DNA from: Schmidtea polychroa | Lineage: Eukaryota | Direction of reading: 5' to 3' | DNA: 64,000 bases | Assembly: GCA_044892525.1 (NCBI GenBank) | Contig: CM097885.1 | Location: forward strand, 39,184,001 to 39,248,000 | In this document: piece after piece, positions 1-37,122 of the stretch | Layout of the letters: every line of letters starts with the position of its first letter | Position numbering within the stretch: the stretch's first letter is position 1 | Made by a program: the position numbers and the translations under genes | The notes under the pieces: generated by a model | Told to the model about the DNA's origin: nothing | Databases searched by the model: none | What the model saw: only the letters and a program-made list of their open reading frames with translations

Positions 1-1
1 A

Positions 2-3000
2 GGATTATGCGGATACTATCGCAAATTTATCAAAAATTATGCAGGAATTGCAAAACCAATCCAGGAATTAGTAAAGAAGGACATTTCGTTCATTTGGGGG
101 AAGGAACAACAAGAGGCGTTCGAAACGCTGAGAGATAAACTAATCGAAGCACCTATCCTCGTACACCCAGATTTTAAGAAGCCATTTCTATTGGCAACGG
201 ATGCAAGCGGGTACGCGGCAGGCGCGATTCTGGGACAATTAGATGATGAAGGAAAAGAGAGAGTAATCGGGTATTACAGTCGAACATTCAAAAAGCACGA
301 AAAGAACTATTCGGTAACAGAACGGGAAGCATTGGCTATAATACAAGCTATCAAACACTTCCGATACTTACTATGGGGACATGAGATATGTATAACCACA
401 GATCATCAACCATTAGTGTGGTTAGGGCAACATAAAGAAGCGTCCAGTAGACTGATGAGATGGGCCATGCAATTGCAAGAATACTCCCCATTTATAAAAT
501 TCAAAGCGGGAAGAGCAAATGCCAACGCCGATTGTATGTCAAGATTTATTTTCCCAGATTTGGTGGATTCAGAAATGCAACGCATATGCTTAATAGTAGC
601 GGAAGATTTGGATTTCTGTCAACTGCGAAAGGACCAACAAGAGGACGCGGAATTAAAACAAATTATCGATTATGTAAAAACCGGAAAGACAGATGTATAT
701 GCGAAAGACCAAAAATTAAAAGAACATATGGATAAACACCGACACCGATATATTATAGAGAAAGATTGGTTGCTGATAATGGATGGGGAAAAACGATTAA
801 TGTGTATACCGGAAAACCGACGAAAAGAGTTACTAACGCAATATCACGATGGGAGATTGGGAGGACATATGTCATCGAAAAAGACGTTAGCAAGAATGAA
901 ACAGAAATATTTTTGGCCTACGTTAACTGAAGATGTAACCGAATGGGTAAAAAATTGTCTAACTTGTGCAACCAGGAAGAATACTGGATCGAAATGGAAA
1001 GCACCTTTAACGCCAATGCCAGTACCAATAGAACCAATGACAATGATATCCATGGACGTAGTTGGTCCACTACCAGAGTCAGATAAAGGAAACGTTTACA
1101 TTCTAGTGATCACAGACTTTCTTACGAAATTCCCAGAAGCATTCGCGATGCCAGACCAAAAAGCTAAAACAATCGCAAAAATTTTGGTAGAAGAGATATG
1201 TTGCCGATATGGAACACCAAAACAAATCTTAACCGATCAGGGAACTAATTTTATGAGTGAGATAATGAGCGAAGTAACAAATTACTTCAAAATAGCAAAA
1301 CTAAGAACATCTCCATACCACCCTCAAACCAATGGGATGACGGAAAGATTTAATGGAACACTTATACAAATGTTATCAAACTACGTCGACCGTCACCAAC
1401 GAGATTGGGACGAATATATAAACCTATGTCTTATGGCATACAGAATGTCGATTCACGCATCAACGAAAATGAGCCCATTCAAATTAATGTACGGAAGAGA
1501 GTGTAATATGCCAATGGACCTGGAATACCAACCACCGATATCGCAGTATATGGAGATCGATGATTATGTTACGAAATTCAAGGAAAGAATGCAAGAGATT
1601 TGGGAAACTGCGGGATTAAATATCAAGTTCTACCAGGAAAGTTATAAAGATTTACACGATCGAAAGAAAAACGTGAAGCAACATACGTTTCAAACAGGTG
1701 ATTGGGTAATGATAGAAACCCCGGAATTAATTCCAGGAACCACAAAAAAGTTACAACGCAACGGAAAAGGACCATATGAGATCTTATTCGTAGGCGAAAC
1801 TAATGTAAGAGTGAAATTGGTAAATAACCCCTTTACCAGGCCAATATACGTAAACGTGGCACGATGCAAATCAATTCCAAAAACAGCCACTAGTCAACCA
1901 GAAGGCCGTACATTAACCACACGTTCGCAAACCTACAGAATGAACATGATGCAACAACTCGCAGAACCGATCACTGGACGATTAGGTATCCAACCATCAG
2001 AAGCGGAAAAGATTGTAAAAGAGGTAAAAATTAAAATACCTGGATGGGCAAAAGATCGATTAGATTTCGAAATATTAGGAGGATTATTGACGATGATCGA
2101 GAACTATGCAAATAGAGAAAGGACACACCCATTATTGCGAGTAGTCAAAAGCCAATGGCCAATATTATTTACCATAACAGATCATTACGGAGACACACCA
2201 TTACACAAACTCATGAAAGTAGGTAACAACGAGCAAATACTAGAAACAATAGAAGCATTTCACGACTGCAAGCGATCAACAGAACAAACAAACAACCAAG
2301 GTTACACACCATTAATGATAGCCGCAAACAGAGGCAAAACAAAAGACGTTATAACCGCATTACTCGATACTGGATCGAAAATAACTACACAAGACCACGA
2401 GCGGAAAAACGCTCTATATCATGCTATCGAAGGGAGAAGTACCGAGGCGTTCACGTCATTGATGGAACTACTATCATATGAGGACAATCGAGAAGTCGGA
2501 AACATGTATGATGGATTATTAACAGCGATCAAAGAGAAACTGACAACAATTACCGGAATATTAATTACATGGAGAAATCCAATTCAAAACGATTATATGA
2601 TCAACGTAAACGAAGCGTTCACGAGAGGAGAGAACACGCTGATGAGAGAAGCTATGAAAGGACATCATTTATTCGAAATCCCGAATCAATTACTAGAACG
2701 AGGGATAAAATTCACAAATCACAAAGATGAACAGTTAACAAAAAAGCGAATCGACACATTCGAAAAATCACTATTCCAATTTACTAACCAAGTACGAAAT
2801 AAATATTGGGAAACGGTAAGTGTGTTATATATGATGGACACAATGAATAACATCCGCGAGAATTACCTGGATATTATCCAAATACTTACAGCAGAGGAAC
2901 GAATCAATAATCCAAACGGAAAGAAAACGAAAATAAGGTATGAGAAATCCAGGGAATCAAAGTCAACAACGAACCAAACGGTCACAAACAACGTCATCGA

Positions 3001-5158
3001 AACCAAATCAATGAGTATAGATCAAGAGGCAATAATACGCAAAGCAAAAGAAGTGTTCTTTGAGGAAATGCTAGAGCTGCCAGACGAAATAATATTGTCC
3101 AAAATAATAAAAGCCGTACACACATACGCAAGAGATCAAACCACGGGTTTAGATATCGGGAAAATCAAAACCTTCTTGCCTCGAGCATTTACGATGGTAA
3201 CAAAGGATTCCAGAACACCTCTACAACAAGCAATACTAGCTGCAAAAGAGAATAGAGCAATAACGATCATGAGCATCCTTGGGGAGATGGGCGAGGAAAC
3301 CAACACGAAAAATGAACAAGGTGAAACCGCCATGATGTATGCAGCTATAACGAAAATACACCCAAAAACACTCCACATCCTACATCAATCAGGATCGAAA
3401 CTAGACGAAAGGTCCAATGAAGGAAATTCCACCTTGGACTGGGCAACCATACAGCCAAACTTAGAAATGATCAGATTTATTTGCAAAAATGCGACAAAGG
3501 AAGAAGTTGAAAACATGTGCAAAGACACATCTCAGTTTCAATGGAATACGATACGGAAAAATCTAGAAGCAATGAAATTATTATTAACCTGGAGAGTACC
3601 ACAAAATAATAAATATGCGATAAATGTAAACGAATTCTACGAAAACGGAGAAAATGCGATGGTAAAGAACACCCTAACTAAGGGGGGGACGCCTAAAATT
3701 ATTTTAATAGTATTAAATAGAGAAGACCTAAAATTCACGCAAAATCAGAACGAGCAACAACGAATTGGGAAACATCGTCGCATGCAATTGAGAGAGTTAG
3801 TTAAAGAATGGAATAGAAAGAGACATGCTGCAACGGGTAGAAAAGAGTTTGAATTCGAAGCAAAATTAGCAAGAAACAGAGTGCTAACAGCATATCGCAG
3901 ATTATTGAACGATATAAATGTCGAGGACGACATTTTAAACGACAGCGGGGGAGATAAAAACGATGACAATGACGGAAAAGGCCGAAAGGAGGATAAAGGG
4001 AAAAGAGAACCGGAAGAGGATAAACCGGAAAACAAGGATTTGGATACGAAAAGAGAGGGAAACAGGCCGGGAACCAAGACCAAAGAGGAGGAAAAATCGA
4101 ATAATGGAAAACAGAGGGTATGCCTACCTTTCACTAACAAAGAAATAGAGACAAATATGATATTAATGATAATTATGCTTACCATGATAGAGTTAGTAAC
4201 AGCTCAGGGAGGGACGAGAACGATAAAAGAAACCAAAGAAGCGGAGAATCAAGATAGCAAAGAGGATGAACTAAAGCAAGAAAAGAAAAAGCAAGCACAA
4301 GAGCAGCAGTGGGATTTAAAGGAAGAATGGGACTTAAAGGAAAGGTGCATACTAGGAAGATGCATGTCTAGAGCGTATCAGAAACTAGTACTGATAAATG
4401 AGGACACAGAACCAATAACAGAAGTAAGAATACAAGAAGCATACCGAAATCGAGACGGGAAGAGAATAACGAACGTTAAAGGAAAAGAGGTACACCTAGG
4501 AAAAGGTGGTGAAGTAGTAATAACGCAGCTCCAACCTAGAAGAGAGCACAAAGTCTGTATTTCAAGATTAGGACCAGGTGAGAGATGCCATCAATATGTG
4601 ACGCAGCAGCAGCCGCCGAAAGAATACACGGTTTGTATCTGGAGGAATGAATCAAAAAGAGAATGCCGACGATACCCAGGGAAAAGAGGAAAGAAAAGAA
4701 AAAACCACGACGAAAAGAACGAAGGAGGAAAGCACAAGAAAACCGGCGAGGAAGCTCAGGACAACTATGTTTCGGAGGAAGAGATGGAAAAAATACAAAA
4801 GATGGCAAAGGATGGTATGAACGAGGAAATAGCAAGAATACGGGAAATGATGAAAGGAAATGGCAAAAGAGGAAACGAGAAAGGTATAGAAGCGATATCA
4901 ACATTAACGAACAAGGAGAAACCAGAGAATATAAGCGTGAAGCAGATGATGTGGATCAGTGGGATAATAATAACAGGGGCCTTCCTAATCATAACGGGGG
5001 GAACAATAAAAATAATCAAAGATAAACGACATCGCGGAGAACTAGAGATGACCCGAATCAGAAATTTCCAACATCGAGTGAAACGACCAAGTGATATCAA
5101 ACAAGAACAGTGGGTGGAGGCCTGGAACGCTCAGCGCCCTCCAAACTCACGTATATAG
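2..5158 (+). CDS. pol: Pol polyprotein (5'-partial): RT thumb/connection, RNase H, integrase, ankyrin modules, membrane-anchored tail
   Basis: Frame is open from nt 2 (GLCGYYRKFIKNYAGIAKP...PFLLATDAS). RNase H: TDAS...EREALAI...TDHQPL. Integrase HHCC: HDGRLGGH...CLTC. Integrase core: MDVVGP...TDQGTNF...ERFN. GPF/Y-like: GDWVMI...GPYEI. No stop until 5158. Confidence 0.96.
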   Translation, partial: GLCGYYRKFIKNYAGIAKPIQELVKKDISFIWGKEQQEAFETLRDKLIEAPILVHPDFKKPFLLATDASGYAAGAILGQLDDEGKERVIGYYSRTFKKHEKNYSVTEREALAIIQAIKHFRYLLWGHEICITTDHQPLVWLGQHKEASSRLMRWAMQLQEYSPFIKFKAGRANANADCMSRFIFPDLVDSEMQRICLIVAEDLDFCQLRKDQQEDAELKQIIDYVKTGKTDVYAKDQKLKEHMDKHRHRYIIEKDWLLIMDGEKRLMCIPENRRKELLTQYHDGRLGGHMSSKKTLARMKQKYFWPTLTEDVTEWVKNCLTCATRKNTGSKWKAPLTPMPVPIEPMTMISMDVVGPLPESDKGNVYILVITDFLTKFPEAFAMPDQKAKTIAKILVEEICCRYGTPKQILTDQGTNFMSEIMSEVTNYFKIAKLRTSPYHPQTNGMTERFNGTLIQMLSNYVDRHQRDWDEYINLCLMAYRMSIHASTKMSPFKLMYGRECNMPMDLEYQPPISQYMEIDDYVTKFKERMQEIWETAGLNIKFYQESYKDLHDRKKNVKQHTFQTGDWVMIETPELIPGTTKKLQRNGKGPYEILFVGETNVRVKLVNNPFTRPIYVNVARCKSIPKTATSQPEGRTLTTRSQTYRMNMMQQLAEPITGRLGIQPSEAEKIVKEVKIKIPGWAKDRLDFEILGGLLTMIENYANRERTHPLLRVVKSQWPILFTITDHYGDTPLHKLMKVGNNEQILETIEAFHDCKRSTEQTNNQGYTPLMIAANRGKTKDVITALLDTGSKITTQDHERKNALYHAIEGRSTEAFTSLMELLSYEDNREVGNMYDGLLTAIKEKLTTITGILITWRNPIQNDYMINVNEAFTRGENTLMREAMKGHHLFEIPNQLLERGIKFTNHKDEQLTKKRIDTFEKSLFQFTNQVRNKYWETVSVLYMMDTMNNIRENYLDIIQILTAEERINNPNGKKTKIRYEKSRESKSTTNQTVTNNVIETKSMSIDQEAIIRKAKEVFFEEMLELPDEIILSKIIKAVHTYARDQTTGLDIGKIKTFLPRAFTMVTKDSRTPLQQAILAAKENRAITIMSILGEMGEETNTKNEQGETAMMYAAITKIHPKTLHILHQSGSKLDERSNEGNSTLDWATIQPNLEMIRFICKNATKEEVENMCKDTSQFQWNTIRKNLEAMKLLLTWRVPQNNKYAINVNEFYENGENAMVKNTLTKGGTPKIILIVLNREDLKFTQNQNEQQRIGKHRRMQLRELVKEWNRKRHAATGRKEFEFEAKLARNRVLTAYRRLLNDINVEDDILNDSGGDKNDDNDGKGRKEDKGKREPEEDKPENKDLDTKREGNRPGTKTKEEEKSNNGKQRVCLPFTNKEIETNMILMIIMLTMIELVTAQGGTRTIKETKEAENQDSKEDELKQEKKKQAQEQQWDLKEEWDLKERCILGRCMSRAYQKLVLINEDTEPITEVRIQEAYRNRDGKRITNVKGKEVHLGKGGEVVITQLQPRREHKVCISRLGPGERCHQYVTQQQPPKEYTVCIWRNESKRECRRYPGKRGKKRKNHDEKNEGGKHKKTGEEAQDNYVSEEEMEKIQKMAKDGMNEEIARIREMMKGNGKRGNEKGIEAISTLTNKEKPENISVKQMMWISGIIITGAFLIITGGTIKIIKDKRHRGELEMTRIRNFQHRVKRPSDIKQEQWVEAWNAQRPPNSRI
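2170..3770 (+). other. Two duplicated ankyrin-repeat modules within the pol ORF
   Basis: Ankyrin motifs GDTPLHKL, GYTPLMIAA, KNALYHAI, RTPLQQAI, GETAMMYAA, GNSTLDWA. Each module ends in a shared cap: TWRNPIQNDYMINVNE...GEN and TWRVPQNNKYAINVNE...GEN. Confidence 0.85.
4157..5158 (+). other. Env-like/type I membrane segment at the pol C-terminus
   Basis: In-frame signal-peptide-like MILMIIMLTMIELVTAQ at 4157, a Cys-containing ectodomain, TM-like MMWISGIIITGAFLIITGGTIKII (about 4946-5017) and a basic cytoplasmic tail. Confidence 0.6.
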
Positions 5159-5318
5159 AAAGGAATATGACTGTATATAATTGTAAAAAGTAAGTATATC
5201 TTATGTATATAACAGTACTATATCTTTATATAAGCGCGGTATCAATATTATACAATAACGGGAATCATAAAATAAAATTAAAGTTAAATAAGAGTTGAAA
5301 AGTGTATATAAATTAAGA

Positions 5319-5665
5319 ATGGATCAAGGAAATAACGAAATGAACCACAATACAGTAACTGAAGAATTATGGAAGCAACAATGTGCCGTATTAGCACAAT
5401 TAGTGTCCAATTTGCAAGAACAAGGATTGACGATGCACAGAGTATGAATAGAGGATTTAGTTATTTGAAGATAATTGAAGACCAGAGGTTGAAAATCGAA
5501 CAAATGCAAAGAGAGATAGAGAGGATAACCCAATATAGCCGTAGACAGGAAATTGAACTAAACAGAATGATGGAGGAAGCAGAACAGACAGAAATAGAAG
5601 ACTGGTCGGAATGGTTAATGAATAGAGAGGAGAGCGGACACGAAGCCGACTCTTCCGAACCCTAA
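5319..5665 (+). CDS. Small coiled-coil/acidic cargo ORF, possibly frameshifted or stop-start coupled
   Basis: A 42-aa ORF at 5319-5447 (MDQGNNEM...LAQLVSNLQEQG) ends in a TGA that overlaps ATG 5444 (ATGA). That ATG is in the 5369-5665 frame (EDQRLKIEQMQREIER...). Confidence 0.5.
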
Positions 5666-5750
5666 ACCAAACCTAGCTTAAAATGTAAATAATTGTAAAT
5701 AAAATATCGAACCTGTATCGATAAGAACTATTTGTACATATAATTATAGA

Positions 5751-7139
5751 ATGGATAAACGACAAAGAGAAGAGTTCAGAGAGATTGTCGAGCAAGTCCG
5801 AAAATCTACAACGATCAGAATACACAAACATGTTATGTGCGGAATATGTGAAAAGTTGTTAAAGGAACCTCACCAAACGCAATGTGGATGCAGAGTATGT
5901 AAAGAATGTATCAGTGAAGCAATAAAGAATAGACCACAGAGGTGCCCGGTGTGTAAAGAGACACTAATATCGAGTTTAGAAGACACTAACGAGGATAAAG
6001 CCGCAGTGAAAGACATGTTAAACACCAACCTGGGATGCAAAAATGCCCCATGCGAATGGAAAGGAGTAATATGGAAGGTAGTACAACATATGGGAGAATG
6101 TATGTACAGAATTGGCCAGTGTGAAAGGTGCCATAAAACCATTCGAGCAAGCGAAGAAAAAGAGCATCAAAGGCAGTGTGAGGAGAGATTAGAAAGATGT
6201 GAACACTGTGGAGAAATAGATACGTGGAAAAATCTCACCCTCAAACATCACAATGTCCAAGAGGAGAGAGTATGTGCAGAGTTCAGTGGGGAATGCCCAA
6301 ACGGATGTAACCAAGGGGAAATAATGAAGGTGGCACAGCATCTAAGGGAATGTGAAAAGAAAAGAATGACATGCGTACTAGGCAAATGGGGTTGTCAGAA
6401 ACTACTACACCGAGGGGAGTTACCACATCATTTAGTAGAAAATGCTTCAACCCACGCAGAAATGTGGTCGACTGCGTTACAAGAAAGCGAGGAGAAAGTA
6501 AAACAAATGGAGATAGAGATAGCATCGTTGAAAGTATTAGTCAAAGAACTACTAGAAGAAAGGGAAGCGTTCGAAGAAGCCCGAGCAAACATAAAGATGC
6601 AAATAAACCGAATAGAAATCAGTAATAATCAGGCCAAGGAGCTACATCAGAAAATACGGGAAATAAATCTAAATGAGATAACCCCAACAGCACCCTACAT
6701 ATGGAAGATTACGGGAGTAAAGGAAAGAATACGAAAAGCAAAAACCGGAGAAGAGACAAGAATAACAAGTCCTGCATTCCATTCTTGGAAAAATGGGTAC
6801 AAAATGAAAATGAAGATATATCCCAACGGGGACGGAACCGGATTAGACACACACTTTTCGATTTTCTTTCTGTTATGTAAAGGAGAATACGACGAAATAA
6901 TAGAGTGGCCGTTCCAGGCGAAAATCGATATTGCACTAATGAATGACCGAAACATCCACGAACAAAGCTTCAAGACAACTGGAAACCAAATGTGTTACCA
7001 GAGACCTACGGAAGAAGAAGGATCAGCAACAGGAGCACCTACGTTCATCCTACAACAAAAAGTAGAAGATATGGCAAGAAAGGGCACGGTGTATATCAAG
7101 ATGACCGTAAGGAAAGAGGAGAAGGGCAGAACGGAGTAA
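5751..7139 (+). CDS. TRAF: Intronless full-length TRAF-family protein (RING, TRAF zinc fingers, coiled coil, MATH), TRAF2/3-like
   Basis: RING CGIC...QTQCGCRVCKEC...CPVC; linker DKAAVKDM...CKNAPCEWKG; TRAF-type zinc fingers; MATH domain YIWKI...SPAF...GYKMKMKIYPNGDGTGLDTHFSIFFLLCKGEYDEIIEWPF. Confidence 0.95.
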   Translation: MDKRQREEFREIVEQVRKSTTIRIHKHVMCGICEKLLKEPHQTQCGCRVCKECISEAIKNRPQRCPVCKETLISSLEDTNEDKAAVKDMLNTNLGCKNAPCEWKGVIWKVVQHMGECMYRIGQCERCHKTIRASEEKEHQRQCEERLERCEHCGEIDTWKNLTLKHHNVQEERVCAEFSGECPNGCNQGEIMKVAQHLRECEKKRMTCVLGKWGCQKLLHRGELPHHLVENASTHAEMWSTALQESEEKVKQMEIEIASLKVLVKELLEEREAFEEARANIKMQINRIEISNNQAKELHQKIREINLNEITPTAPYIWKITGVKERIRKAKTGEETRITSPAFHSWKNGYKMKMKIYPNGDGTGLDTHFSIFFLLCKGEYDEIIEWPFQAKIDIALMNDRNIHEQSFKTTGNQMCYQRPTEEEGSATGAPTFILQQKVEDMARKGTVYIKMTVRKEEKGRTE

Positions 7140-7333
7140 ACGATCGAATAATGTTGTATATAATAATCTGTATATATCGGTGTATATAACCAATAAAATA
7201 TTATATAATAATAGTATGAAAAACCCTAAATACGTAAACCCAAAAATGATGCGAAAATTTCCAAAGAAACAGCAAATAATGAATAAATTCCTTTTTCATA
7301 ATAAAAAGCTTAATCGATGTCTATGATTTAGAG

Positions 7334-8389
7334 ATGACACAAGAGAAACTAACCGAAACTGCGATAGTCCCAACCAATGTCAACAAGACACAAATTCCCC
7401 GAGAACATAACAAAAAATGGAACAAAGTAATGTTCCAACTAACTAATCTCACCCGAAATCACATCGAAGAAGCTAGAGAGGATGAGAATAGTCAATACCA
7501 ATGGTTAATACACAACTTAAGAGCGGAAGCAGAAGCATGCAAAAGAGCATCAAAATGGGCGTCACTAGAAAATACCCGCCAAGAAGCGCACAGCCACTAC
7601 TTAAAGCAGCTAGTGCAGGAAGCGAGAAAGAGACTTACCGATGAGAACACCAAGCGCGAAGCGGAAAAGCAAATAGAAGGAAGGAAAATGATGCACTTAG
7701 TGGCAGAAGCGAGAAAATGGAAAAGACAAAGCAATGAAATGAAAAAAGAGATGAAAGAATTGCCCATGAGACTCGGATATGAGAGCGAACAGGGTAAATG
7801 GGAGGAAAATTTAATAATAAAGGAAGAACTGAAACGGTTGAAAAAGGTCGCCGCCCGAAGCCAAACATGGCAGATGAAGGCTATGGAGTTTGAACGACAT
7901 TTGGCAATAAAATGCGACATAAGAGAGCACGAGAATGCCGCAATGGAAGAGATGATAACCCAGCAAGCAGGACGGGTTGTGGAATTAGTAAATCAGGTCG
8001 AAGAGATGAAAAGAGACCTTAATGGATTACAAGGATCGTTAGAACAAAGAAACATGGTCCTGGCGGGAAAAAACAGAAAATTAGAAAACGAGAGGAAAAT
8101 GTATACCGAAAATATCAAAAACTTGGAAATAGAAATTGAAAAATGGAAGGGCGACGAGAAAATCAAGGCCTTAGATAGACAAGTAGAGGCGAAAGACGAA
8201 GAGACAAGGTATCTCACTTATCTGCTCGACGAAGAGCTGAATATCACTCGAGCTCTAAGAGACGAAGTTAATGAATTGAGAGCTCAAATCCCCCAATATT
8301 ACCTACCCTATGACCCTATTGCGATACAGTTGCATCCAGCGGTCGATAGTGATGAAGGTTATGTGGGACAGGAGGAAACCTTCGTATAA
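7334..8389 (+). CDS. Uncharacterised coiled-coil cargo protein (351 aa)
   Basis: Long intact ORF with the same A-rich composition as pol; E/K/R heptad-rich; no recognisable domain. Confidence 0.75.
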   Translation: MTQEKLTETAIVPTNVNKTQIPREHNKKWNKVMFQLTNLTRNHIEEAREDENSQYQWLIHNLRAEAEACKRASKWASLENTRQEAHSHYLKQLVQEARKRLTDENTKREAEKQIEGRKMMHLVAEARKWKRQSNEMKKEMKELPMRLGYESEQGKWEENLIIKEELKRLKKVAARSQTWQMKAMEFERHLAIKCDIREHENAAMEEMITQQAGRVVELVNQVEEMKRDLNGLQGSLEQRNMVLAGKNRKLENERKMYTENIKNLEIEIEKWKGDEKIKALDRQVEAKDEETRYLTYLLDEELNITRALRDEVNELRAQIPQYYLPYDPIAIQLHPAVDSDEGYVGQEETFV

Positions 8390-8502
8390 GGGTGAATAAA
8401 AGGATAAAAACAAAAATCGGGACGTATATCCCAAACAAAAAAATTAAAGTATTGTAAAAGTATTCAAGGGACTGTAACCCGAACTATTAAAATTTTATAT
8501 AA

Positions 8503-9264
8503 ATGCATAAGTATAAGTCGCACTATAGCGCACCATTAACTGTACATATTACAGATATGAAAATCGAGGAAATAATAGAAATTACGAGCGACGTGGAAGA
8601 GGGAGAGATTGAGGCAGAAACAACAGAAACACAAACGTTAAAGGCCAAGTTACGGGAAGAGAGGGACGAAAACGAGAGACTAATAAACAAATATATAGAA
8701 GACCGAAAAATGATTAAAATACTAAAGAAGGAGTGCGAAGCGTTAGGAGAAATAAAGAGAGAAGCTGAAGAGAAGAATGAATGGTTGCAAGAACAACGAA
8801 CACGAGGAAGAAACTGGGAAAAGATTGCAGAGGAACTATGGCAAGAGAGGGCAAGCTTCAAGGCAGAAGAAGTAATCCAAGATTATTGGAAAACAGAGGC
8901 GAAAGAACACCAAATAACTATAAATAAATTAAATCGACAATTGGAGGAAAAACAACGAGAAAGTGAGGAAATGAAGAAATGGATTCGCAAGTACCAAGAG
9001 ATCGAGAGAAAACAACAACAACAACAACAACGAAACCTTTCGCAGGAAAACGAACAAGATTTCCTACAAATCGAACTAAAAAGGAATCTCGACAAAAAAC
9101 GGGAAGAAATTAAGAGACTGAAAAAGGAGATAAGGCACATGAAAAGGGAGGCCCGTGAAAAGAACAGACAGTTGGAAATGCTGCCCGAGTTAAGACACAG
9201 AGTCATTAAAGCGGAATCCACCCTGATGAGAATCGCCGAAAATAACCCAAACCAGAATCATTAA
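8503..9264 (+). CDS. Uncharacterised coiled-coil cargo protein (likely start ATG 8557)
   Basis: Intact 253-aa ORF with an acidic N-terminus, then heptads and a polyQ tract. ATG 8557 follows the shared TGTACATAT...AG motif. Confidence 0.75.
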   Translation: MHKYKSHYSAPLTVHITDMKIEEIIEITSDVEEGEIEAETTETQTLKAKLREERDENERLINKYIEDRKMIKILKKECEALGEIKREAEEKNEWLQEQRTRGRNWEKIAEELWQERASFKAEEVIQDYWKTEAKEHQITINKLNRQLEEKQRESEEMKKWIRKYQEIERKQQQQQQRNLSQENEQDFLQIELKRNLDKKREEIKRLKKEIRHMKREAREKNRQLEMLPELRHRVIKAESTLMRIAENNPNQNH

Positions 9265-9305
9265 ATTAAGGGTCACTAAAACCAATTGTAAATAAACCAT
9301 AATGA

Positions 9306-9965
9306 ATGTATAATAGTATCATGCGAGGCGAGATGATGATAACAATGACGGTATTGATGATTCTGACGGAGAACAAACAAGTAAACGCCCAACCGAAAAT
9401 CGTGCGAGATTACCGAAATCAAAATCAAGAACCTAAACGAGAATCCGGCCAATGCACATACCCTATGACAGTAAAAATCCATATCATCCAAACCCTTCAA
9501 TCAACCCGTTCACACATCAACAACATCCAAACAATGTGTAAAAAGAATCCCATTTGTAAAATGATAAACAAACAAATCCTCGAACAAATCCAACAATTCG
9601 ACCAGCTAGAACAACAAATGCAACAAGAGAATTTTGAAAATCTTGTAGAAAAGCCAAAAACACCTCCCGAAATCAATGACACCCATTATCTCATATATGT
9701 GGTGATCGCAGAAACCCTCCTCCTATGTCTACCAATACTCATGAAGATTTACGAAGTTAGAAATAAATGTAGAACCCCGACAGCAATAAGAGTAACCTCG
9801 AACAGAAATCCTCAAGAAGTGCCACTGACAAATCTTAACCCAACCCCATTCCGACCTCGAATCCCGAGTAACCAACCAATCCAGCCGAATTCTTACAGTC
9901 AGACCTATCTCAACATCAATACCCAAACCAACCAACAACCGCCGGCAGAAGCATCAAATGGTTAA
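9306..9965 (+). CDS. Small predicted type I membrane cargo protein
   Basis: Hydrophobic N-terminus MMITMTVLMILTENKQVNAQ, short helical ectodomain with two Cys, TM-like YLIYVVIAETLLLCLPILM, and a Pro/Asn/Gln-rich tail. Confidence 0.7.
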   Translation: MYNSIMRGEMMITMTVLMILTENKQVNAQPKIVRDYRNQNQEPKRESGQCTYPMTVKIHIIQTLQSTRSHINNIQTMCKKNPICKMINKQILEQIQQFDQLEQQMQQENFENLVEKPKTPPEINDTHYLIYVVIAETLLLCLPILMKIYEVRNKCRTPTAIRVTSNRNPQEVPLTNLNPTPFRPRIPSNQPIQPNSYSQTYLNINTQTNQQPPAEASNG

Positions 9966-10583
9966 CAGTTCATAAACTCTAACTCAAACATTGGTGATAT
10001 CATATGTAGAAACTTTTATTGTATATACAAACTATCACCTTAAGTGATACTTGCTTGGTCTTGATTTGACCTATATCTTAGAATAAAATTGTTTTATTAT
10101 TGTAATATAATTGTTTCGATATATCCTTTTTATGAATGCATGAAGTAAGATAACTATGCAATTGCGGGACGCAATTTTGATGGGTCCCCGAGTGATTTGT
10201 TGGGCTGAATCGAAGGGTAGTTGAGAAATTAGGGCAAACTTAACTAAAATAAAATAAAAAATAAAAACAAATAAATTGACAAACAAAATAGAATAAAACA
10301 TAAGAAAAACAATAATTAGAAAATAGGAATTAAAACAAAAAATATAAAGATGAGAAAAAATTAAAATAGGACAATAGAATGGCGGAAAACAACGTAAAAT
10401 ATAGTAAATAATAAGAAAATTAAGGAAAATAAATAAAAACATAATTTTAATAAAGAAAGTAAGAAGAAATAACTCAAAAACAAGGAAAATAAATTAAATT
10501 AATAAAATTAAGCGGTACTCAATTCTAATTGGTCCGCGCAAACAAAAAATTAATATATAAGCAGGCATTAAAAACATAACAAT

Positions 10584-10659
10584 TACTGTTAATCAACCAC
10601 CTCAATAGGTAAGCGAAATTTAAACAAAAATACTGTTAATCAACCACCTCAATAGGTAA
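10584..10659 (+). repeat. 29-bp direct repeat pair in the LTR (U3 enhancer-like)
   Basis: TACTGTTAATCAACCACCTCAATAGGTAA at 10584 and 10631; also present in the second LTR copy. Confidence 0.8.
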
Positions 10660-12633
10660 ATCTATTCTACGACAGAACAGAACTCCAGCAACTAACGCAC
10701 GATAACTCACGAGGACAATCCCAAGATTCAAGAGATTTTTACAGAACTAGACGATATTCGAGCATTAACTGATTCGACATAGTACCCTTTTCGACTCAGC
10801 CCATACTTGTATCAATCATTCAGTAAGGATTTTTGATTGCTTATTTTGAATTTTTAAGTAATGCGTATAGTTTAATAATATTTTTAATTTAAAAAATGGT
10901 TTTTCTTTTCGTTTGATTTTCGAATGCTTTACTTAAATTAATAATTTGCTTAATAATAAATGATTTGCTCGTTAAGAATTATTGATCTTTTATGAATTAA
11001 TTTGTATGAATTATTGGAGACTATTCAATTTTGCGAGAAACGTGGCGTTGAGATACTCTATGTCATGGTGTGAGGTGCCTTCGGGAGCTCCACCGGTGGA
11101 CATAGGGTATTTCAATCACGCAGCTAGATTGGGCCGAAATGTGAGGGCTTCTTCACGGGTCCAATTGCTGAAGGTGCGACTAAAAGCTATAGGTAAATGG
11201 TGGCAGAAAATTGATAGTCATGTAGTGATTGAAAACAAAGATATATAATAAAGGAATCGGAGAGTTTGGATGTATTCGCGCAGTGATTGAGGGTGTCGCA
11301 CTATCGTCTTCAAATATCGTTTTTGCTAAACCTAAAAATCTCTCTATCATCAATGTAGGTTGTGCGTCAAAAATTGTTCAAACCTTAATGAGGCTATCTG
11401 TGACATATCTTTGATGTTCATACCTTTCACTCAGAATCTGTTCCGACCAATTTTAGCCTATGACCTTTTGAACTATTATTCCGTTCACCTAAAAGTTCTC
11501 TTAAAGACATCGTTGCAAGGAAGCTCAAAGTAGATTGCTTCAGATAATTATTGGAATTATTCCAAATGACTGTTTACGGATAAATTGTAGAACTACGTAA
11601 AATAATTTATTATAGATAATTGTTAGAACTTCATAAAACGAGTTTGTTCCAATTAAAATTTTGAATTACATAAAATAATTTACTTCAATTAATTTTTTTT
11701 TGAATTATATAAAAATATTTACCTATAATCAATTATCATAATTACACGAACTATTGGCATCAAATAATTTAAAATGAAAAATGCAACCAATTCGAACCAA
11801 GAAAATATATTTCTTCAAGTTAACCGATAATCTTGTTAAATACAAAATTCCAGTATTACATGAGGTTGGCAATCCAGCAGAGATAGGAAAAAATCCTCCA
11901 GCACTTAGAGAGTAGATTGATAAACTAGGCTTGAGGAATTAGAGACGAAAAATCCACCCTTGGAGCAAGCAGTATCCAACATTTGCAATATAGATAATTT
12001 TAATTTTTCCAATAATCCGGTGAGAATTAGTAAATCATCACCATATGCCGTAGAATTGTGAGCGAATACGCGGTGGATAAAATTCTGAGAGAATGCCATC
12101 ATGCAAACATTCAACGCCTGCATTGGTAGTATAATTAAGCGGGTGAAAGCGCACCTGGCATGCGTCACCAGTTGCAGACTTACCTAATAGCCAAGTACAG
12201 TAGACAAAGTCACACACGCATCTACTCATGAAAAATTAGATCGAACATGCCAATTAAACTACCGACAGCTATCAGATTTCACCGCTTCGGATTAAGAGTC
12301 AATCACTGGGCTGACATTACCTTATCTACCCAGCAGGTATGATCGACTACTAGCTCACACTGATACCGTGCTCAGTTGTTATAAAGACACTAACATTTAA
12401 TGATAAACTCGATCATAATTATGAGTATTCTCTCGTTATTATCTTAGCATGAATGGCACCGAAATTATTTCATTTTTTGACATAGTTATCATTAATATTA
12501 GTATCGAATATTGTTAAATAAATATTATGTAAACCAGGTAAAACACATACGTGAGTAATTAAAGAAAATGAATAAACAATTAAAAATTTAAATAACCTTC
12601 CGTTTATCCTGTAGGAACTAATCAACAGGCATT

Positions 12634-13757
12634 ATGGACCCCTTTTCCATAGATAGTCACTCGACCCCAATATATGATACACTCAGTAAAAGCACTCGTA
12701 CGGGGGGAGAAGTCGACAATTTAAATCGATTCTCGGTAAACGTGAAATAATGACTCCAAGCGGATTAAATAAATAATCAGTTTCATCGACATAGAATTTC
12801 TCTCACAAACAGTAATATCTTCCTTTTCCTTGTGCGAAATCTGGGTTGATTGATTTATCTTCTTATAATTAAAGCCCCGAAAGGGTACGAGAATCCATCG
12901 CGTAGTAGAACTTGTCCTGACTGGTAAACCCTTATTTTTGTCTATGATCAGTACAGTATGAATGTAGTCAGGTGGTGACGCTCCCGCTGATTTAATTATT
13001 TTCATTTTCTTTTTCACAGTCGCTCAAAATGTTGCCAAATTCCAAGCCCGTTCTTCGACCTTGTTTTTCTTGCTCCGACAAGAATTCAATTATCAAAGAG
13101 CTCCAGGCCCAAATTGGCAAGCACAAAAGAAGGATAGATGAGTTAGAGGGGACATGGTTTAGTCCCACCCAGATGAAGGAGGCTCAGAAGAAGCTGCACC
13201 GAAGCGAGCACTGTAGAGACGCGTTGATTTCCGAGAGTCGGGCGCAGAGGAGCCTGATAAAAGAGCAGTCGGAGGCGCTGCACAAATTGTACGTCCAGGC
13301 CGCAACTACAAGGAAGATCGCGAAGATCCCGATTAACGAAGCCAGTAACCTTTTCCCAGCACATCATGATATCTCTGGAAAGTCCTGCCATGGGTGCGTA
13401 GAGACCGAGCTCTCACCTAAAGGACCAGAAATCATCTTTACCGGAACCAGTAAAGTGCTACCTGCGATAGCATCCACCTCAGCAGCACCCTCGACCAACC
13501 AAACAGCATCGAAGCCAAAGCGTCGACAATTATCGAGAGCAGAACGAAAGAAAAAACAGCGGGAACGCATAACCGCCAAACAGAACCAGCAATCGTCGGA
13601 TCATCCAATCAAAGTCATCAACCCCCCTGCAGCAATCGATTTAGCACCAGTGATCTCAGGGCGAATCATCTCCGCCGCTGGTGTTACCTGGGAGGAAAAC
13701 GCCTCTGAGTTTTTCGATTTGGAAGATCTATTGGCAGACTCGGAGTGGGAGAAATGA
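12634..13757 (+). CDS. LTR-encoded spliced gene (exons 12634-12735 and 13020-13757; 279 aa): CxxC, coiled coil, basic NLS-like segment, acidic tail
   Basis: 34-codon exon MDPFSID...NRFS ends at a GT donor (12736). A polypyrimidine TTTTCATTTTCTTTTTCACAG acceptor at 13019 joins it in frame (SLK) to the 242-aa ORF. Contains KPKRRQLSRAERKKKQRER and ends FFDLEDLLADSEWEK. Confidence 0.72.
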
Positions 13758-13891
13758 GAACTTCCCCGTAAAAAGTCTTCGTTCTCTGAATTGACCTGAA
13801 CATTGTCTGATAACATTTTACCTTGTCTCTTTTCCCGTTGTCGTGAACTTTATTGTATAGGTGTTAGATATATTTGTGTGATAATCTTAAT

Positions 13892-13897
13892 AATAAA
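13892..13897 (+). promoter_or_regulatory. Candidate polyadenylation signal in the LTR
   Basis: AATAAA 135 nt after the LTR ORF stop, followed by a GT/T-rich tract. Confidence 0.5.
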
Positions 13898-16800
13898 CCA
13901 TTTTTGTCTGCATACGTTCTTTTTGTGTTCATCTTAAGACAGTTGAGTTGAAATTGGTAAATGGTATTGAGAGTCATAAAATTATGAGGAGCATTAGTCA
14001 GTTGGTAAACTCAGCTAGAAATATTGCGATGGGGCGACGGAATGAGTAGACGTAAGTCCTTCTATCGGCAGTCAGGGTTGGGAAGTCGAGGCCTCAGTAA
14101 GGAGTAGTCCGAAGGAGCTGGCTCACCTGCTTACTGGCGTCTCGCCGGCATAGCACAGTTCCAACGTGAAGCAATTCACGGGTGCTATGTTGGAGTGTAA
14201 GTTATGTACGGGTCCCGCTCGGCGATGACCAAATAAATGACGGGCGAAATCGAGGTGGGCATTCATCCTCTAGACTAAAGCTGCACTAGAAAGGGGTCAT
14301 CCGAGTAGTGTACCCGCAACAACTGTAAAAATAAAAATTGTGGAACGTTCTGTGCTGTTCCGGGCTTTATTTTATTCGTAGGATTAACCTTTGAATATTA
14401 TTACAAGCGCTAAATTTTTGGGCGATTATACTAAAAATGTTTGGGGTATTTATATTAGATTTTTAAGCCAGATGTTATTTTAAAATAAATTATATTAATT
14501 TCTAGTGTTAAGAATTGTATTTCAAGTATGATCTTAAGAACAAATTATATTATTTTACCTAAAGAAATATTATTTTATTTTTATTTTCAGTTAATTCAAG
14601 AATACTTGAATTATTCTGACTAAAATTTTTCAGCTGTTTATTTATTAAAGAAATTTTACCTTTAATTAAAATTTATTGTTATTAATTTAAAATATTAAAT
14701 TAAAAATTATTAAAATATTTTCCCTTGTATAAAATTATATTGTAATCATTTATTAAAAAGTTAACTAATAAAATACTCAGTCTATTAAATATATACACCC
14801 GATAAAATATACATCATTAATCAGACAGTATTATACATAAATAATCAGACAGAAATTAATCAGAATAATAATAAAGGATAAAATATGCACAGATTGTTAG
14901 CTATTTCGAGGATAATGTTTGATCAATAATATTTACACAAATTAAATCGTTCAAGAATAATGTTTTGTTGAATTAACTTGAATTGATTGGATTGTTTCTG
15001 GATTGAATTGGGTTGCATGGAATTGGGTTGTTGATTGTTGGGAAATTAGATTGTCTATTTATCTACGCTCTTCGGTGTATACATTGACTCGGTATCTCTT
15101 GGGCCCTGTCCTATAATACCGGTTGAGGTTAAATGTGGTGATGTGCCTACCTTCATCATCCAACATACTTAATCTCCTTGAGTAACTCTGAGTTGTTATT
15201 GTCGTTCCCGACCAATATAAAACAATCTTTCATCACTATTACAATATATTACAAAACTACAGTAAACTTTATTGTCAAGTCACTGAAACATTATATTAAT
15301 AATACAGGATACTAATAATCAAAGGAATAGAAATTAGAACCCGGAACTTTAATAATATAAATAAGTATTATTGTCGACAAAGGTTCAAATATGCACTCCT
15401 CATCTGAGGCATTCATAACATTTGCATAGTATATTACTTCACTTTTTGGTGGTACTTCTTTGACAGATTCGTGTTTCATTATAATTTGAAATGAATTTAA
15501 AGTTTCAGTGACAGACGAGACCCATTAACTATTGACTGACTCATTTAATTTGTCTGTTTTCAGAAATCTATATGAAATCTATTGATCCTGTTAGCTTCCA
15601 CTGGCGTCATGAGAATCGCGGCGGGTTGGTCGAGAGTTTGAGTGGTCTGTGACTTGACAGCTCTGTGGCAACTGCTTGTTTGTCAAGGATGTGAGATTTA
15701 GAGACTGAAGGTTTATCTGTTTGATAATCTTGTTTTAATTAATTGTCGGGGTATTTTGAAACTTTAATTGAAAGTTTTTTACAGAAATTAAAACAACATT
15801 TCGATTTTCCTGGGTGTTCTTTACTATTGCTAATTTAATTTGATTTAATTAACAAATTAGGAGTGATGACACTAAAGCTTTTAGGGAAATTTTGCAAGTA
15901 GTTGCTGATATATCAATGATAGGTTAATTTGGTGTTGCTTTTTACTTGTTTTACCCGATTGCAAATAAAGTTCAAGTTATTTCAAAAGGTAATGATAGAC
16001 AATATTTATGAGAATCATTGGCTGATGGGTCTAAAAGTTAAGTATAATAGTTATAAACCAATTGCTAGAGGTTCTTAAGTCATTTTAAACATAAAAGAAG
16101 ATCAAATTAAATATCTGAATGAAAAGATCCAATCATCAACCTAGAATTATATTCTATTGACTAAAAGTATGCAACAAAAGCATCGGAAAGTTCTCCATTG
16201 ATGCAAATAATAAAAGAGAAAATTTATTTTCTAACAAAATTACTAAACTTCATACAATTCAAATTGAAAGAAATTAACGATGTTAAGATTAAGTTTCACA
16301 ATGCAAAATAAAGAAATAACCAAATACCAGATGATGAAACTACAGTAACAAAAGAGAAGGAAAGTGAAGAAACCGAAAGTAAATCGAAACTTGAATATTT
16401 GGATGATGACGATAAAAATATAAAGATTAAAAGGAAAAGAAAAGATGCTGGTGTAGAAGAGTTAAATAAAAATAACCCGATTTAGACAATAATCCAAAAT
16501 CGAAAAATATTAATTAATTTAATTATGTTTAAAAAGCCAAGAAAAAGCCTATTATCATTAAGTTTTAAGAAAAAATCCTTCATTGAAATTATGATAAAAT
16601 TATGTATGTCGAAAATTCAAATTTTTGTGTCAATTTGAATTCTTCTGTAAATCTAATCATATTTCTTGACCAGCCATTTCAACCTTATACCAAACTTTCA
16701 ACAGCTTTAGTTCACCTGATTGTAAAATTAAGTTTTGTAATCAGAATTCAAAATCTTATTTAATGGAGAGTTAGGTGAATAGAGAAAAATAAGTACATGC

Positions 16801-32975: not shown

Positions 32976-35900
32976 TGTTGGGCTGAATCGAAGGGTAGTT
33001 GAGAAATTAGGGCAAACTTAACTAAAATAAAATAAAAAATAAAAACAAATAAATTGACAAACAAAATAGAATAAAACATAAGAAAAACAATAATTAGAAA
33101 ATAGGAATTAAAACAAAAAATATAAAGATGAGAAAAAATTAAAATAGGACAATAGAATGGCGGAAAACAACGTAAAATATAGTAAATAATAAGAAAATTA
33201 AGGAAAATAAATAAAAACATAATTTTAATAAAGAAAGTAAGAAGAAATAACTCAAAAACAAGGAAAATAAATTAAATTAATAAAATTAAGCGGTACTCAA
33301 TTCTAATTGGTCCGCGCAAACAAAAAATTAATATATAAGCAGGCATTAAAAACATAACAATTACTGTTAATCAACCACCTCAATAGGTAAGCGAAATTTA
33401 AACAAAAATACTGTTAATCAACCACCTCAATAGGTAAATCTATTCTACGACAGAACAGAACTCCAGCAACTAACGCACGATAACTCACGAGGACAATCCC
33501 AAGATTCAAGAGATTTTTACAGAACTAGACGATATTCGAGCATTATCTGATTCGACATAGTACCCTTTTCGACTCAGCCCATACTTGTATCAATCATTCA
33601 GTAAGGATTTTTGATTGCTTATTTTGAATTTTTAAGTAATGCGTATAGTTTAATAATATTTTTAATTTAAAAAATGGTTTTTCTTTTCGTTTGATTTTCG
33701 AATGCTTTACTTAAATTAATAATTTGCTTAATAATAAATGATTTGCTCGTTAAGAATTATTGATCTTTTATGAATTAATTTGTATGAATTATTGGAGACT
33801 ATTCAATTTTGCGAGAAACGTGGCGTTGAGATACTCTATGTCATGGTGTGAGGTGCCTTCGGGAGCTCCACCGGTGGACATAGGGTATTTCAATCACGCA
33901 GCTAGATTGGGCCGAAATGTGAGGGCTTCTTCACGGGTCCAATTGCTGAAGGTGCGACTAAAAGCTATAGGTAAATGGTGGCAGAAAATTGATAGTCATG
34001 TAGTGATTGAAAACAAAGATATATAATAAAGGAATCGGAGAGTTTGGATGTATTCGCGCAGTGATTGAGGGTGTCGCACTATCGTCTTCAAATATCGTTT
34101 TTGCTAAACCTAAAAATCTCTCTATCATCAATGTAGGTTGTGCGTCAAAAATTGTTCAAACCTTAATGAGGCTATCTGTGACATATCTTTGATGTTCATA
34201 CCTTTCACTCAGAATCTGTTCCGACCAATTTTAGCCTATGACCTTTTGAACTATTATTCCGTTCACCTAAAAGTTCTCTTAAAGACATCGTTGCAAGGAA
34301 GCTCAAAGTAGATTGCTTCAGATAATTATTGGAATTATTCCAAATGACTGTTTACGGATAAATTGTAGAACTACGTAAAATAATTTATTATAGATAATTG
34401 TTAGGACTTCATAAAACGAGTTTGTTCCAAATAAAATTTTGAATTACATAAAATAATTTACTTCAATTTTTTTTTGAATTATATAAAAATATTTACATAT
34501 AATTAATTATCATAATTACACGAACTATTGGCATCAAATAATTTAAAAATGAAAAATGCAACTAACTCGAGCCAAGAAAAATATATTTCTTCAAGTTAAC
34601 CGAGGATCTTTTTAATTAAATAAAAAATTCCAGTATTTCATGGGGCTGGCAATCCAGCAGGGACAGGTAGAAATCCTCCAGCACTTAGAGAGTAGCTCGA
34701 TAAACTATGTTTGAGGAATTAGAGACGAAAAATCCACCCTTGGAGCAAGCAGTATCCAACATTTGCAATATAGATAATTTTAATTTTTCCAATAATCCGG
34801 TGAGAATTAGTAAATCATCACCATATGCCGTAGAATTGTGAGCGAATACGCGGTGGATAAAATTCTGAGAGAATGCCATCATGCAAACATTCAACGCCTG
34901 CATTGGTAGTATAATTAAGCGGGTGAAAGCGCACCTGGCATGCGTCACCAGTTGCAGACTTACCTAATAGCCAAGTACAGTAGACAAAGTCACACACGCA
35001 TCTACTCATGAAAAATTAGATCGAACATGCCAATTAAACTACCGATAGCTATCAGATTTCACCGCTTCGGATTAAGAGTCAATCACTGGGCTGACATTAC
35101 CTTATCTACCCAGCAGGTATGATCGACTACTAGCTCACACTGATACCGTGCTCAGTTGTTATAAAGACACTAACATTTAAGGATAAACTCGATCATAATT
35201 ATGAGTATTCTCTCGTTATTATCTTAGCATGAATGGCACCGAAATTATTTCATTTTTTGACATAGTTATCATTAATATTAGTATCGAATATTGTTAAATA
35301 AATATTATGTAAACCAGGTAAAACACATACGTGAGTAATTAAAGAAAATGAATAAACAATTAAAAATTTAAATAACCTTCCGTTTATCCTGTAGGAACTA
35401 ATCAACAGGCATTATGGACCCCTTTTCCATAGATAGTCACTCGACCCCAATATATGATACACTCAGTAAAAGCACTCGTACGGGGGGAGAAGTCGACAAT
35501 TTAAATCGATTCTCGGTAAACGTGAAATAATGACTCCAAGCGGATTAAATAAATAATCAGTTTCATCGACATAGAATTTCTCTCACAAATAGTAATATCT
35601 TCCTTTTCCTTGTGCGAAATCTGGGTTGATTGATTTATCTTCTTATAATTAAAGCCCCGAAAGGGTACGAGAATCCATCGCGTAGTAGAACTTGTCCTGA
35701 CTGGTAAACCCTTATTTTTGTCTATGATCAGTACAGTATGAATGTAGTCAGGTGGTGACGCTCCCGCTGATTTAATTATTTTCATTTTCTTTTTCACAGT
35801 CGCTCAAAATGTTGCCAAATTCCAAGCCCGTTCTTCGACCTTGTTTTTCTTGCTCCGACAAGAATTCAATTATCAAAGAGCTCCAGGCCCAAATTGGCAA

Positions 35901-37122
35901 GCACAAAAGAAGGATAGATGAGTTAGAGGGGACATGGTTTAGTCCCACCCAGATGAAGGAGGCTCAGAAGAAGCTGCACCGAAGCGAGCACTGTAGAGAC
36001 GCGTTGATTTCCGAGAGTCGGGCGCAGAGGAGCCTGATAAAAGAGCAGTCGGAGGCGCTGCACAAATTGTACGTCCAGGCCGCAACTACAAGGAAGATCG
36101 CGAAGATCCCGATTAACGAAGCCAGTAACCTTTTCCCAGCACATCATGATATCTCTGGCGGGTCTTCTTCTCCAGTCGGAAAGTCCTGCCATGGGTGCGT
36201 AGAGACCGAGCTCTCACCTAAAGGACCAGAAATCATCTTTACCGGAACCAGTAAAGTGCTACCTGCGATAGCATCCACCTCAGCAGCACCCTCGACCAAC
36301 CAAACAGCATCGAAGCCAAAGCGTCGACAATTATCGAGAGCAGAACGAAAGAAAAAACAGCGGGAACGCATAACCGCCAAACAGAACCAGCAATCGTCGG
36401 ATCATCCAATCAAAGTCATCAACCCCCCTGCAGCAATCGATTTAGCACCAGTGATCTCAAGGCGAATCATCTCCGCCGCTGGTGTTACCTGGGAGGAAAA
36501 CGCCTCTGAGTTTTTCGATTTGGAAGATCTATTGGCAGACTCGGAGTGGGAGAAATGAGAACTTCCCCGTAAAAAGTCTTCGTTCTCTGAATTGACCTGA
36601 ACATTGTCTGATAACATTTTACCTTGTCTCTTTTCCCGTTGTCGTGAACTTTATTGTATAGGTGTTAGATATATTTGTGTGATAATCTTAATAATAAACC
36701 ATTTTTGTCTGCATACGTTCTTTTTGTGTTCATCTTAAGACAGTTGAGTTGAAATTGGTAAATGGTATTGAGAGTCATAAAATTATGAGGAGCATTAGTC
36801 AGTTGGTAAACTCAGCTAGAAATATTGCGATGGGGCGACGGAATGAGTAGACGTAAGTCCTTCTATCGGCAGTCAGGGTTGGGAAGTCGAGGCCTCAGTA
36901 AGGAGTAGTCCGAAGGAGCTGGCTCACCTGCTTACTGGCGTCTCGCCGGCATAGCACAGTTCCAACGTGAAGCAATTCACGGGTGCTATGTTGGAGTGTA
37001 AGTTATGTACGGGTCCCGCTCGGCGATGACCAAATAAATGACGGGCGAAATCGAGGTGGGCATTCATCCTCTAGACTAAAGCTGCACTAGAAAGGGGTCA
37101 TCCGAGTAGTGTACCCGCAACA
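32976..37122 (+). mobile_element. Solo LTR (4147 bp) of the giant Gypsy family
   Basis: TGTTGGG...CCCGCAACA with a perfect 4-bp TSD TACT (32972-32975 and 37123-37126); near-identical to 10198-14321. Confidence 0.93.
35414..36558 (+). CDS. Second copy of the LTR-encoded spliced gene (exons 35414-35515 and 35800-36558; 286 aa)
   Basis: Same splice sites and an intact frame; differs from copy 1 by an in-frame 21-bp indel (GSSSPVG) and G-to-R near the C-terminus. Confidence 0.72.

Follow-up and report, generated by a model that had tools for sequence, protein, structure and literature searches.

The closest described relatives of the element reported here are the Burro retrotransposons of planarians. 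Passages of PMC6431247 describe Burro1/GYPSM1 as more than 30 kb long, with a 4,873-aa first open reading frame (ORF1), env between gag and pol, and MATH_TRAF_C, BIR, ankyrin repeat, Smc and BCL2-like motifs. In the same passages, a Burro-like element of Dugesia tigrina has MATH_TRAF_C in a separate accessory ORF upstream of ORF1. The Burro1 IAP is reported to protect stem cells (Lee 2026, as cited in a passage of PMC13465017). We have analyzed a window of 64,000 nucleotides from Schmidtea polychroa (GenBank assembly GCA_044892525.1, contig CM097885.1, positions 39,184,001 to 39,248,000, forward strand), which begins inside a giant Gypsy element that ends at window position 14321. Taken as a whole, the following picture appears to us very probable: It is a young, 30.3-kb, envelope-bearing element of the Burro type, from a sister family of Burro1 and not Burro1 proper, without an IAP gene, with a giant polyprotein which is likely to be self-processed, accessory messages which are likely to be spliced separately, and a TRAF likely to favour host-cell survival.

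The complete element spans G000:C1:39168021-39198321 (30,301 bp), and the window holds its 3' half. Features are on the + strand unless otherwise stated. The 3' long terminal repeat (LTR) is found at 10198..14321 (4,124 bp, TG...CA ends). Its 5' partner has 4,145 bp; the two differ by one in-frame 21-bp gap, with 0 mismatches. The four bases at 14322..14325 are the same as those preceding the 5' LTR, a 4-bp target-site duplication (TSD). Counting the added CCA, 18/18 bases of the primer site agree with the tRNA-Pro(TGG) 3' end. The LTR pair, the TSD, the tRNA primer site and the order protease (PR), reverse transcriptase (RT), ribonuclease H (RH), integrase (IN) are those of Ty3/Gypsy elements. 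A sequence-only reading of the window had proposed a recently active giant Gypsy element ending in a 4.1-kb LTR with its own gene, all of which holds; gag, PR, RT and the 5' LTR, which it expected further 5', are found upstream of the window. The element is young, high-copy and recently active.

No purine run is found just 5' of the 3' LTR, where a polypurine tract would be expected, in the window or in L065, L089, L093 and L050. The expected site is occupied by a GC-rich element (10160..10197) in 5/5 lineages, with a purine fraction of 0.33-0.53 in the last 15 bases. It has about 35 bases with inverted arms, and it is kept even in the distant sister family described below. We should also note that tRNA-Pro(TGG), the primer tRNA of the element, forms a tandem array of 475-bp units (L044, from G000:C1:130.90 Mb onward), and that its exact pattern has 2,164 matches across the genome.

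A single frame of 4,732 codons codes for gag, a fusion-type env, PR, RT, RH, IN, ankyrins and a membrane tail. The window has its 3' part (1,718 codons) at 2..5158; gag, CCHC knuckles, env, protease and RT are encoded further 5', outside the window (L011). The env, placed between gag and protease, corresponds to Monjiviricetes_fusion (E 5e-70). RNase H is at 95..484 (Pfam RT_RNaseH, E 2e-39), and the integrase zinc finger and catalytic core at 806..1324 (Pfam Integrase_H2C2 and rve), with a ratio of nonsynonymous to synonymous changes (dN/dS) of 0.04. Two short ankyrin blocks are fused behind the integrase at 2177..3502 (Pfam Ank_2, E 1e-17; PDB matches in two stretches; dN/dS 0.11-0.16). By hydropathy, the tail at 4157..5158 is a predicted type I membrane protein, with a signal-like segment at 4157 and a transmembrane segment at 4949 (dN/dS 0.13-0.17). 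Its ectodomain bears cysteines and is predicted as all-beta in a low-confidence model (pLDDT, the model's confidence score, 53). A fibronectin-like fold, suggested by eye, is not confirmed: The model is weak, Foldseek finds nothing at E 0.001, and a wide search gives just the scores common to beta-sandwiches, with Z of 7.4 at most. The polyprotein would be cut by the element's protease and by signal peptidase. Another ORF precedes this frame (L012:8491-8973), which has an IAP-type RING and no BIR (dN/dS 0.08). Tandem repeats of about 74 bases are found in the leader between this RING-only ORF and gag (L012:9530-9940).

Downstream of the polyprotein, the element contains a series of accessory ORFs. 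The first one (5320..5665) is small and frameshifted by a private 13-base deletion, absent in 11/11 other copies; its dN/dS between lineages is 0.17. It is followed by an intronless, full-length TRAF of 462 aa (5751..7139; dN/dS 0.09-0.16), and by two ORFs of no known family, at 7334..8389 (dN/dS 0.05-0.13) and at 8557..9264 (dN/dS 0.11-0.14, with an earlier ATG at 8503), which we call coiled-coil-like judging from their charged, helical-type sequence. A second membrane ORF (9321..9965) has a signal-like start and a transmembrane segment at 9699, and is the fastest-evolving cargo (dN/dS 0.30-0.51). Neither membrane-protein ectodomain matches a receptor family in profile, atlas or structure searches. 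The lone match from the profile and atlas searches of the element proteins is a repeat protein, which we have taken as chance. Finally, the LTR contains an ORF of 242 aa and no known family (13029..13757), with a conserved helical N-terminal half, a basic cluster and an acidic tail. Six AT-rich spacers (5159..10197, 895 bp in total) lie between these genes, with an acceptor-like AG just ahead of the next ATG. The anatomy of the sequence-only reading (integrase, ankyrins, membrane tail, TRAF, two coiled-coil ORFs, membrane ORF and LTR gene) is thus all present on the + strand. Its 8 kb of intact coding sequence after the integrase stands as to its parts, but not as to intactness: This stretch includes about 0.9 kb of spacers and the frameshifted small gene.

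The cargo belongs to the element. The eleven copies compared (ten spread over 40 DNA matches, plus one more) are all co-linear from the integrase into the LTR, nine of them with the same LTR throughout; they were located via TRAF, so this comparison addresses linkage to pol and LTR, not the presence of TRAF. As the sequence-only reading expected, the cargo is multicopy, intronless and linked to pol and LTR. Polyprotein-tail matches are at least 93% identical in all 120 cases scored, out of 735 candidates, and 59 of these (hand count) lie in a stop-free frame of 4,732 codons. Three of four more distant loci are co-linear too, two of them full and one degraded; the fourth is a fragment. That a cluster of host genes, or a chimeric assembly, might lie beside a Gypsy element can practically be dismissed. 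The host does have intronless TRAF genes with a similar layout, but this cargo lies inside paired LTRs with a TSD and the copies are co-linear, which refutes it. In addition, the cargo has the A-skew of the element (0.39, vs 0.00-0.18 in host TRAFs), and no pol is found near four host TRAF loci.

The remaining two of the eleven copies (L063:1511-5387 and L085/L086) are 93-99% identical inside, with a different 3.9-kb LTR after its first 395 bp. The LTR ORF is 65% identical in these copies, which suggests LTR exchange or a much faster LTR turnover. The 3' LTR of a diverged copy is interrupted by the compact pol of an unrelated Gypsy element (L090:360-3746, - strand).

All these genes are under purifying selection, with dN/dS mostly 0.05-0.2. 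Among 12-13 copies, the mean ratio of nonsynonymous to synonymous differences per site (pN/pS) is 0.04 for the integrase, 0.11-0.16 for the ankyrins, 0.17 for the tail, 0.16 for TRAF, 0.13 and 0.11 for the coiled-coil ORFs, 0.22 for the LTR ORF and 0.51 for the membrane ORF, in pairs which are not independent. In the most divergent pair, the membrane ORF has p = 0.06 and the remaining genes have p < 1e-6. Compared with a lineage whose dS is near 1, dN/dS is 0.05-0.17, with 0.30 for the membrane ORF. The LTR ORF has pS 0.79 vs pN 0.19 between lineages. The dN/dS values among copies are far below 1.

The family has the features of a Burro element: A length of more than 30 kb, LTRs of several kb, at least 120 close copies, a giant ORF with an in-frame env, ankyrins, and TRAF/MATH. 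With Burro1/GYPSM1, as described in the passages of PMC6431247, it shares the size, the long LTRs, the giant ORF (gag, in-frame env, PR-RT-RH-IN, ankyrins), the TRAF/MATH cargo and the accessory ORFs. On the other hand, its frame has 4,732 codons instead of 4,873, and the window family has neither a MATH in the polyprotein nor a BIR/IAP: Domain scans find no MATH in its polyprotein, and no BIR in any ORF scanned. Since both are missing, we consider it Burro-like but not Burro1. In lacking MATH in ORF1 and having the TRAF domain in a separate accessory ORF it resembles the Dugesia tigrina element (PMC6431247, same passages); that TRAF ORF is upstream of ORF1, while in the window element TRAF is downstream and the upstream ORF is RING-only.

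A family with the Burro1 layout is found in the same genome. It has 35,061 bp, a MATH in a frame of 4,791 codons, and a downstream BIR-RING ORF. This sister family is co-linear with the window element, with 91% identity in RT, 79% in IN and 59% in env. It has its own full downstream TRAF, which is 30% identical to the window TRAF. The gap between TRAF and the next ORF is only 194 bp in the window family; the sister family has its BIR-RING ORF there. The RING of the upstream ORF mentioned above is 38-40% identical to the RING of the IAP in the sister family. A third family, suspected at L059, is an inverted piece of the sister family.

Another related group is that of the GAG-ENV-POL errantiviruses of Platyhelminthes, with an HSV/gB-type env (passages of PMC13524379). 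They also have env ahead of pol and a class III-type fusion protein. A large accessory region, present in the window element, is not covered in those passages. LTR pairs separated by more than 14 kb were excluded from this survey, whose main text does not name Burro.

The TRAF of the element is complete: RING, zinc fingers and MATH are found in order, with a coiled-coil-like linker judged by position and sequence. The eight ligands of the RING are present, with Cys replacing the usual His, as in host TRAF2-like genes. The closest structures to its MATH are those of TRAF1/2/3. In a quick tree of full-length TRAFs, a split (100) sets a flatworm side apart from the TRAFs of other animals and one TRAF4-like host gene; the element TRAFs constitute a single clade (98) on the former side, with long branches flagged. 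In a quick tree of MATH alone (2 truncated rows of 30 omitted), all element MATH domains, including the polyprotein one, are placed in one group (94), and 20 host cluster exons in another (100). This tree suggests a single old capture of TRAF. Large clusters of host MATH exons are found in G000:C2, at about 105-124 Mb and 1-5 Mb (L020-L043); they form one clade apart from the element TRAFs. We have considered Burro as the source of the host TRAF expansion: The separation of the element MATH clade from the host cluster exons does not support this for the cluster sampled. Such an expansion in planarians is described in passages of PMC6109357 and PMC7586133; the latter contains no word beginning with transpos or retro. 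Dozens of the best 150 MATH matches in the genome sit in frames of element length, so Burro copies inflate the TRAF/MATH gene counts of planarians.

Planarian TRAF2-like genes (D. japonica TRAF2-like A; Smed-TRAF-2A/B, passages of PMC7586133) share the intronless RING-zinc finger-MATH layout and the flatworm side of the tree. They differ in sequence: The window TRAF is only 28-30% identical to the four host TRAF genes tested. Among named relatives, a host TRAF is best matched in Dugesia and Dendrocoelum.

What might this cargo do? According to the sequence-only reading, TRAF and the ankyrins fused to pol were new cargo, a cassette for modulation of the TNF/NF-kB pathway. The novelty has not survived: MATH_TRAF_C and ankyrins are already part of Burro1/GYPSM1 in the passages of PMC6431247, and the cassette had thus largely been described. 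We also consider improbable the proposal itself, an undescribed TNF/NF-kB cassette in which IkB-like ankyrins, TRAF and receptor decoys would act jointly. It agrees with a complete TRAF, whose MATH is closest to TRAF1/2/3, and with two predicted type I membrane proteins which flank it. However, it rests on domain names. In IkB-like inhibitors, 6-7 IkB-related ankyrin repeats form a single run, whereas these ankyrins are two short blocks best matched by generic ankyrin proteins, with Bcl-3, of the IkB family, last among the 60 matches listed. Moreover, no receptor family corresponds to either ectodomain, TRAF/MATH and ankyrins are described for Burro1 (PMC6431247), and host TRAF knock-downs point to survival in the passages of PMC7586133. 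Searches of the genome for Rel-domain and TNF families were blank, which does not show absence.

In our opinion, a role in survival would be likelier than NF-kB modulation: RNA interference of host TRAF raises planarian cell death (PMC7586133, in the passages cited), and the Burro1 IAP protects stem cells (passage of PMC13465017). We see about an even chance that the window TRAF takes part in signalling for host survival or defence, either as an adaptor or as a ubiquitin ligase. A different possibility, which we judge unlikely though worth keeping in mind, is that the cargo is there for the cycle of the element itself: Restriction factors would be removed by TRAF and the upstream RING protein, and the membrane proteins would steer budding, entry or superinfection exclusion. 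The presence of a fusion-type env, the retention of RING-bearing genes in a family whose IAP gene is absent, and the rapid evolution of the second membrane ORF are in its favour. Nevertheless, no target or partner is identified, and host TRAF2-like genes act in survival in the passages of PMC7586133.

The accessory genes appear to have splicing signals of their own. An acceptor-like YAG is found 0-4 nt ahead of the ATG in 11/14 accessory starts of the two families, compared with 2/105 internal ATGs and 32/721 flank ATGs; the rule was set after viewing the sequence, and the second ATG was scored in 3/14 cases. In two lineages which were added afterwards, 9/12 ORFs follow it if either of their first two ATGs is counted. 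The LTR presents CCAAT-like (10528), TATA-like (10554), donor-like (10609 and 10823), acceptor (13019) and AATAAA (13892) signals. CCAAT-, TATA- and donor-like sites are found within the first 420 bp in three LTR types of the window family; the pattern is looser in the fourth LTR type and in the sister family. In three of the four LTR types, the LTR ORF has an acceptor ahead and an AATAAA behind. The simplest reading, which we hold to be somewhat more probable than not on these signals, is that a common leader is spliced to each gene: A short non-coding leader from the LTR promoter would be joined to each acceptor. With such splicing, a solo LTR would be a two-exon gene.

HIV-1, the mouse mammary tumour virus MMTV and the foamy viruses, known as complex retroviruses, have genes which overlap the LTR and multiply spliced accessory mRNAs. 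The window element would be alike if one leader is spliced to many acceptors, a splicing which we infer from its signals; it differs in gene order and in env class. Other observations on these sites may be mentioned. A good donor-like site about 30 bases past the polyprotein stop (window 5180-5195) is found in four lineages of the window family, not in the sister family. A donor-like site at about 14054 was set aside, since the sister family does not share it. At 10590-10660, some 45 bases which include the first donor-like site are duplicated in tandem, and this is also the case in the other LTR type.

Several results weigh against the picture proposed at the outset. No clear donor or AATAAA is found at the equivalent LTR positions of the sister family. 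GT-AG joints between the LTR donors and the acceptors are absent from the listed contigs of presumed-RNA runs (X5, X6 and X7, compared along with the DNA-like X1), which contain diverged copies, show presence or absence poorly and thus give no evidence either way. IAP, the sole Burro cargo with a reported function, is missing from the window family. The BCL2-, ubiquitin- and dUTPase-like motifs of Burro1 are not confirmed in the window element: In ORF1, a BCL2-like motif gives Bcl-xL rows with E 1-2 and weak Mcl-1 rows from a model with pLDDT 53, a ubiquitin-like motif gives a match with E 0.73, and a dUTPase-like motif gives no match. The placement with respect to Burro1 is based on its published description and layout, and the role proposed for the window TRAF on its domains and on the published results for host TRAF and the Burro1 IAP.

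A striking feature of the spacers is the motif TGTAHATA, with 12 copies in the window (5172, 5204, 5303, 5684, 5694, 5733, 7155, 7169, 7181, 8541, 9287 and 10020). These 12 are found in 895 bp of spacers. The ORFs (9,301 bp) have 0 copies and the flank (45,532 bp) has 5; the mean in shuffled spacers is 0.62, and 0/300 shuffles reach 12. The spacers of the sister family contain 7 in 698 bp (shuffle mean 0.75, 0/300). The motif is anchored to stop codons. Of 31 stops in five lineages, 21 are followed by the first copy at a distance of 14-23 nt; two of these lineages are close, and in the rest synonymous sites have reached saturation or almost done so. The genes differ in this respect: The placement holds for 20/20 stops of the polyprotein, small ORF, TRAF and second coiled-coil ORF, and for 1/11 of the others. 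Host MATH frames, used as a control, have the motif within 40 nt after 0/30 stops, and within 200 nt after 1/30. The motif was chosen after inspection, and held in lineages fetched afterwards. Its fifth letter is T in 25 cases, A in 22, C in 4 and G in 2.

TGTAHATA agrees with the consensus of the Pumilio response element, UGUAHAUA on the sense strand of 3' untranslated regions; its TGTAAATA form is also a Forkhead-like site. The odds seem to us evenly balanced that the motif acts on RNA, probably as a Pumilio/PUF site or as a 3'-end signal. Going further, the accessory genes might form a regulated cassette, with a single LTR leader joined to every gene and a Pumilio-type element about one ribosome-length past each stop, which we put forward as a tentative suggestion.

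The same arrangement might instead be an operon trans-spliced to a spliced leader (SL), with polyadenylation in the spacers, or a set of genes with small internal promoters; TGTAHATA would then be a 3'-end or promoter signal. We find this rather doubtful. The order stop, motif, acceptor, ATG resembles the layout of nematode operons, and an AATAAA is found behind most ORFs, often overlapping TGTAHATA. But spacer AATAAA is not enriched (8 vs 5.7 in shuffles), and TGTAHATA keeps its distance from the preceding stop rather than from the next ATG. The flatworm SL leader ends in AUG, which would favour one frame, and the 0-4 nt gaps between acceptor and ATG show no frame bias. In addition, UGUA is absent upstream of planarian poly(A) signals, according to passages of PMC5068929.

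The rest of the window contains a few other features. A solo LTR of the same family, 98.6% identical, is found at 32976..37122; it has a separate 4-bp target duplication, and its LTR ORF is open. A DM10-domain exon of an EFHC-type gene is present at 23821-24096 (- strand); this gene may therefore contain or adjoin the element and the solo LTR. A tandem repeat of 70 bp with about six copies is found at 52518-53010, next to an N stretch, and a Tc5/CENP-B-type transposase DNA-binding fragment at 58008-58682 (- strand).

The giant, env-bearing, cargo-laden Burro design is already in print, and the window family is an IAP-less variant of it. The stop-anchored motif is one feature for which we have found no published description, in the literature searched on motif and Burro. 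As it persists when synonymous changes have reached saturation, it points to a particular host factor which reads these messages. If the tentative suggestion above is true, a host PUF protein would tie the translation or stability of the polyprotein and cargo messages to cell state. The window family has more than 100 young copies without IAP, though the reported host benefit of Burro1 runs via IAP. An IAP-less family beside an IAP-bearing one in the same genome thus provides a contrast for asking what TRAF and the other cargo do.

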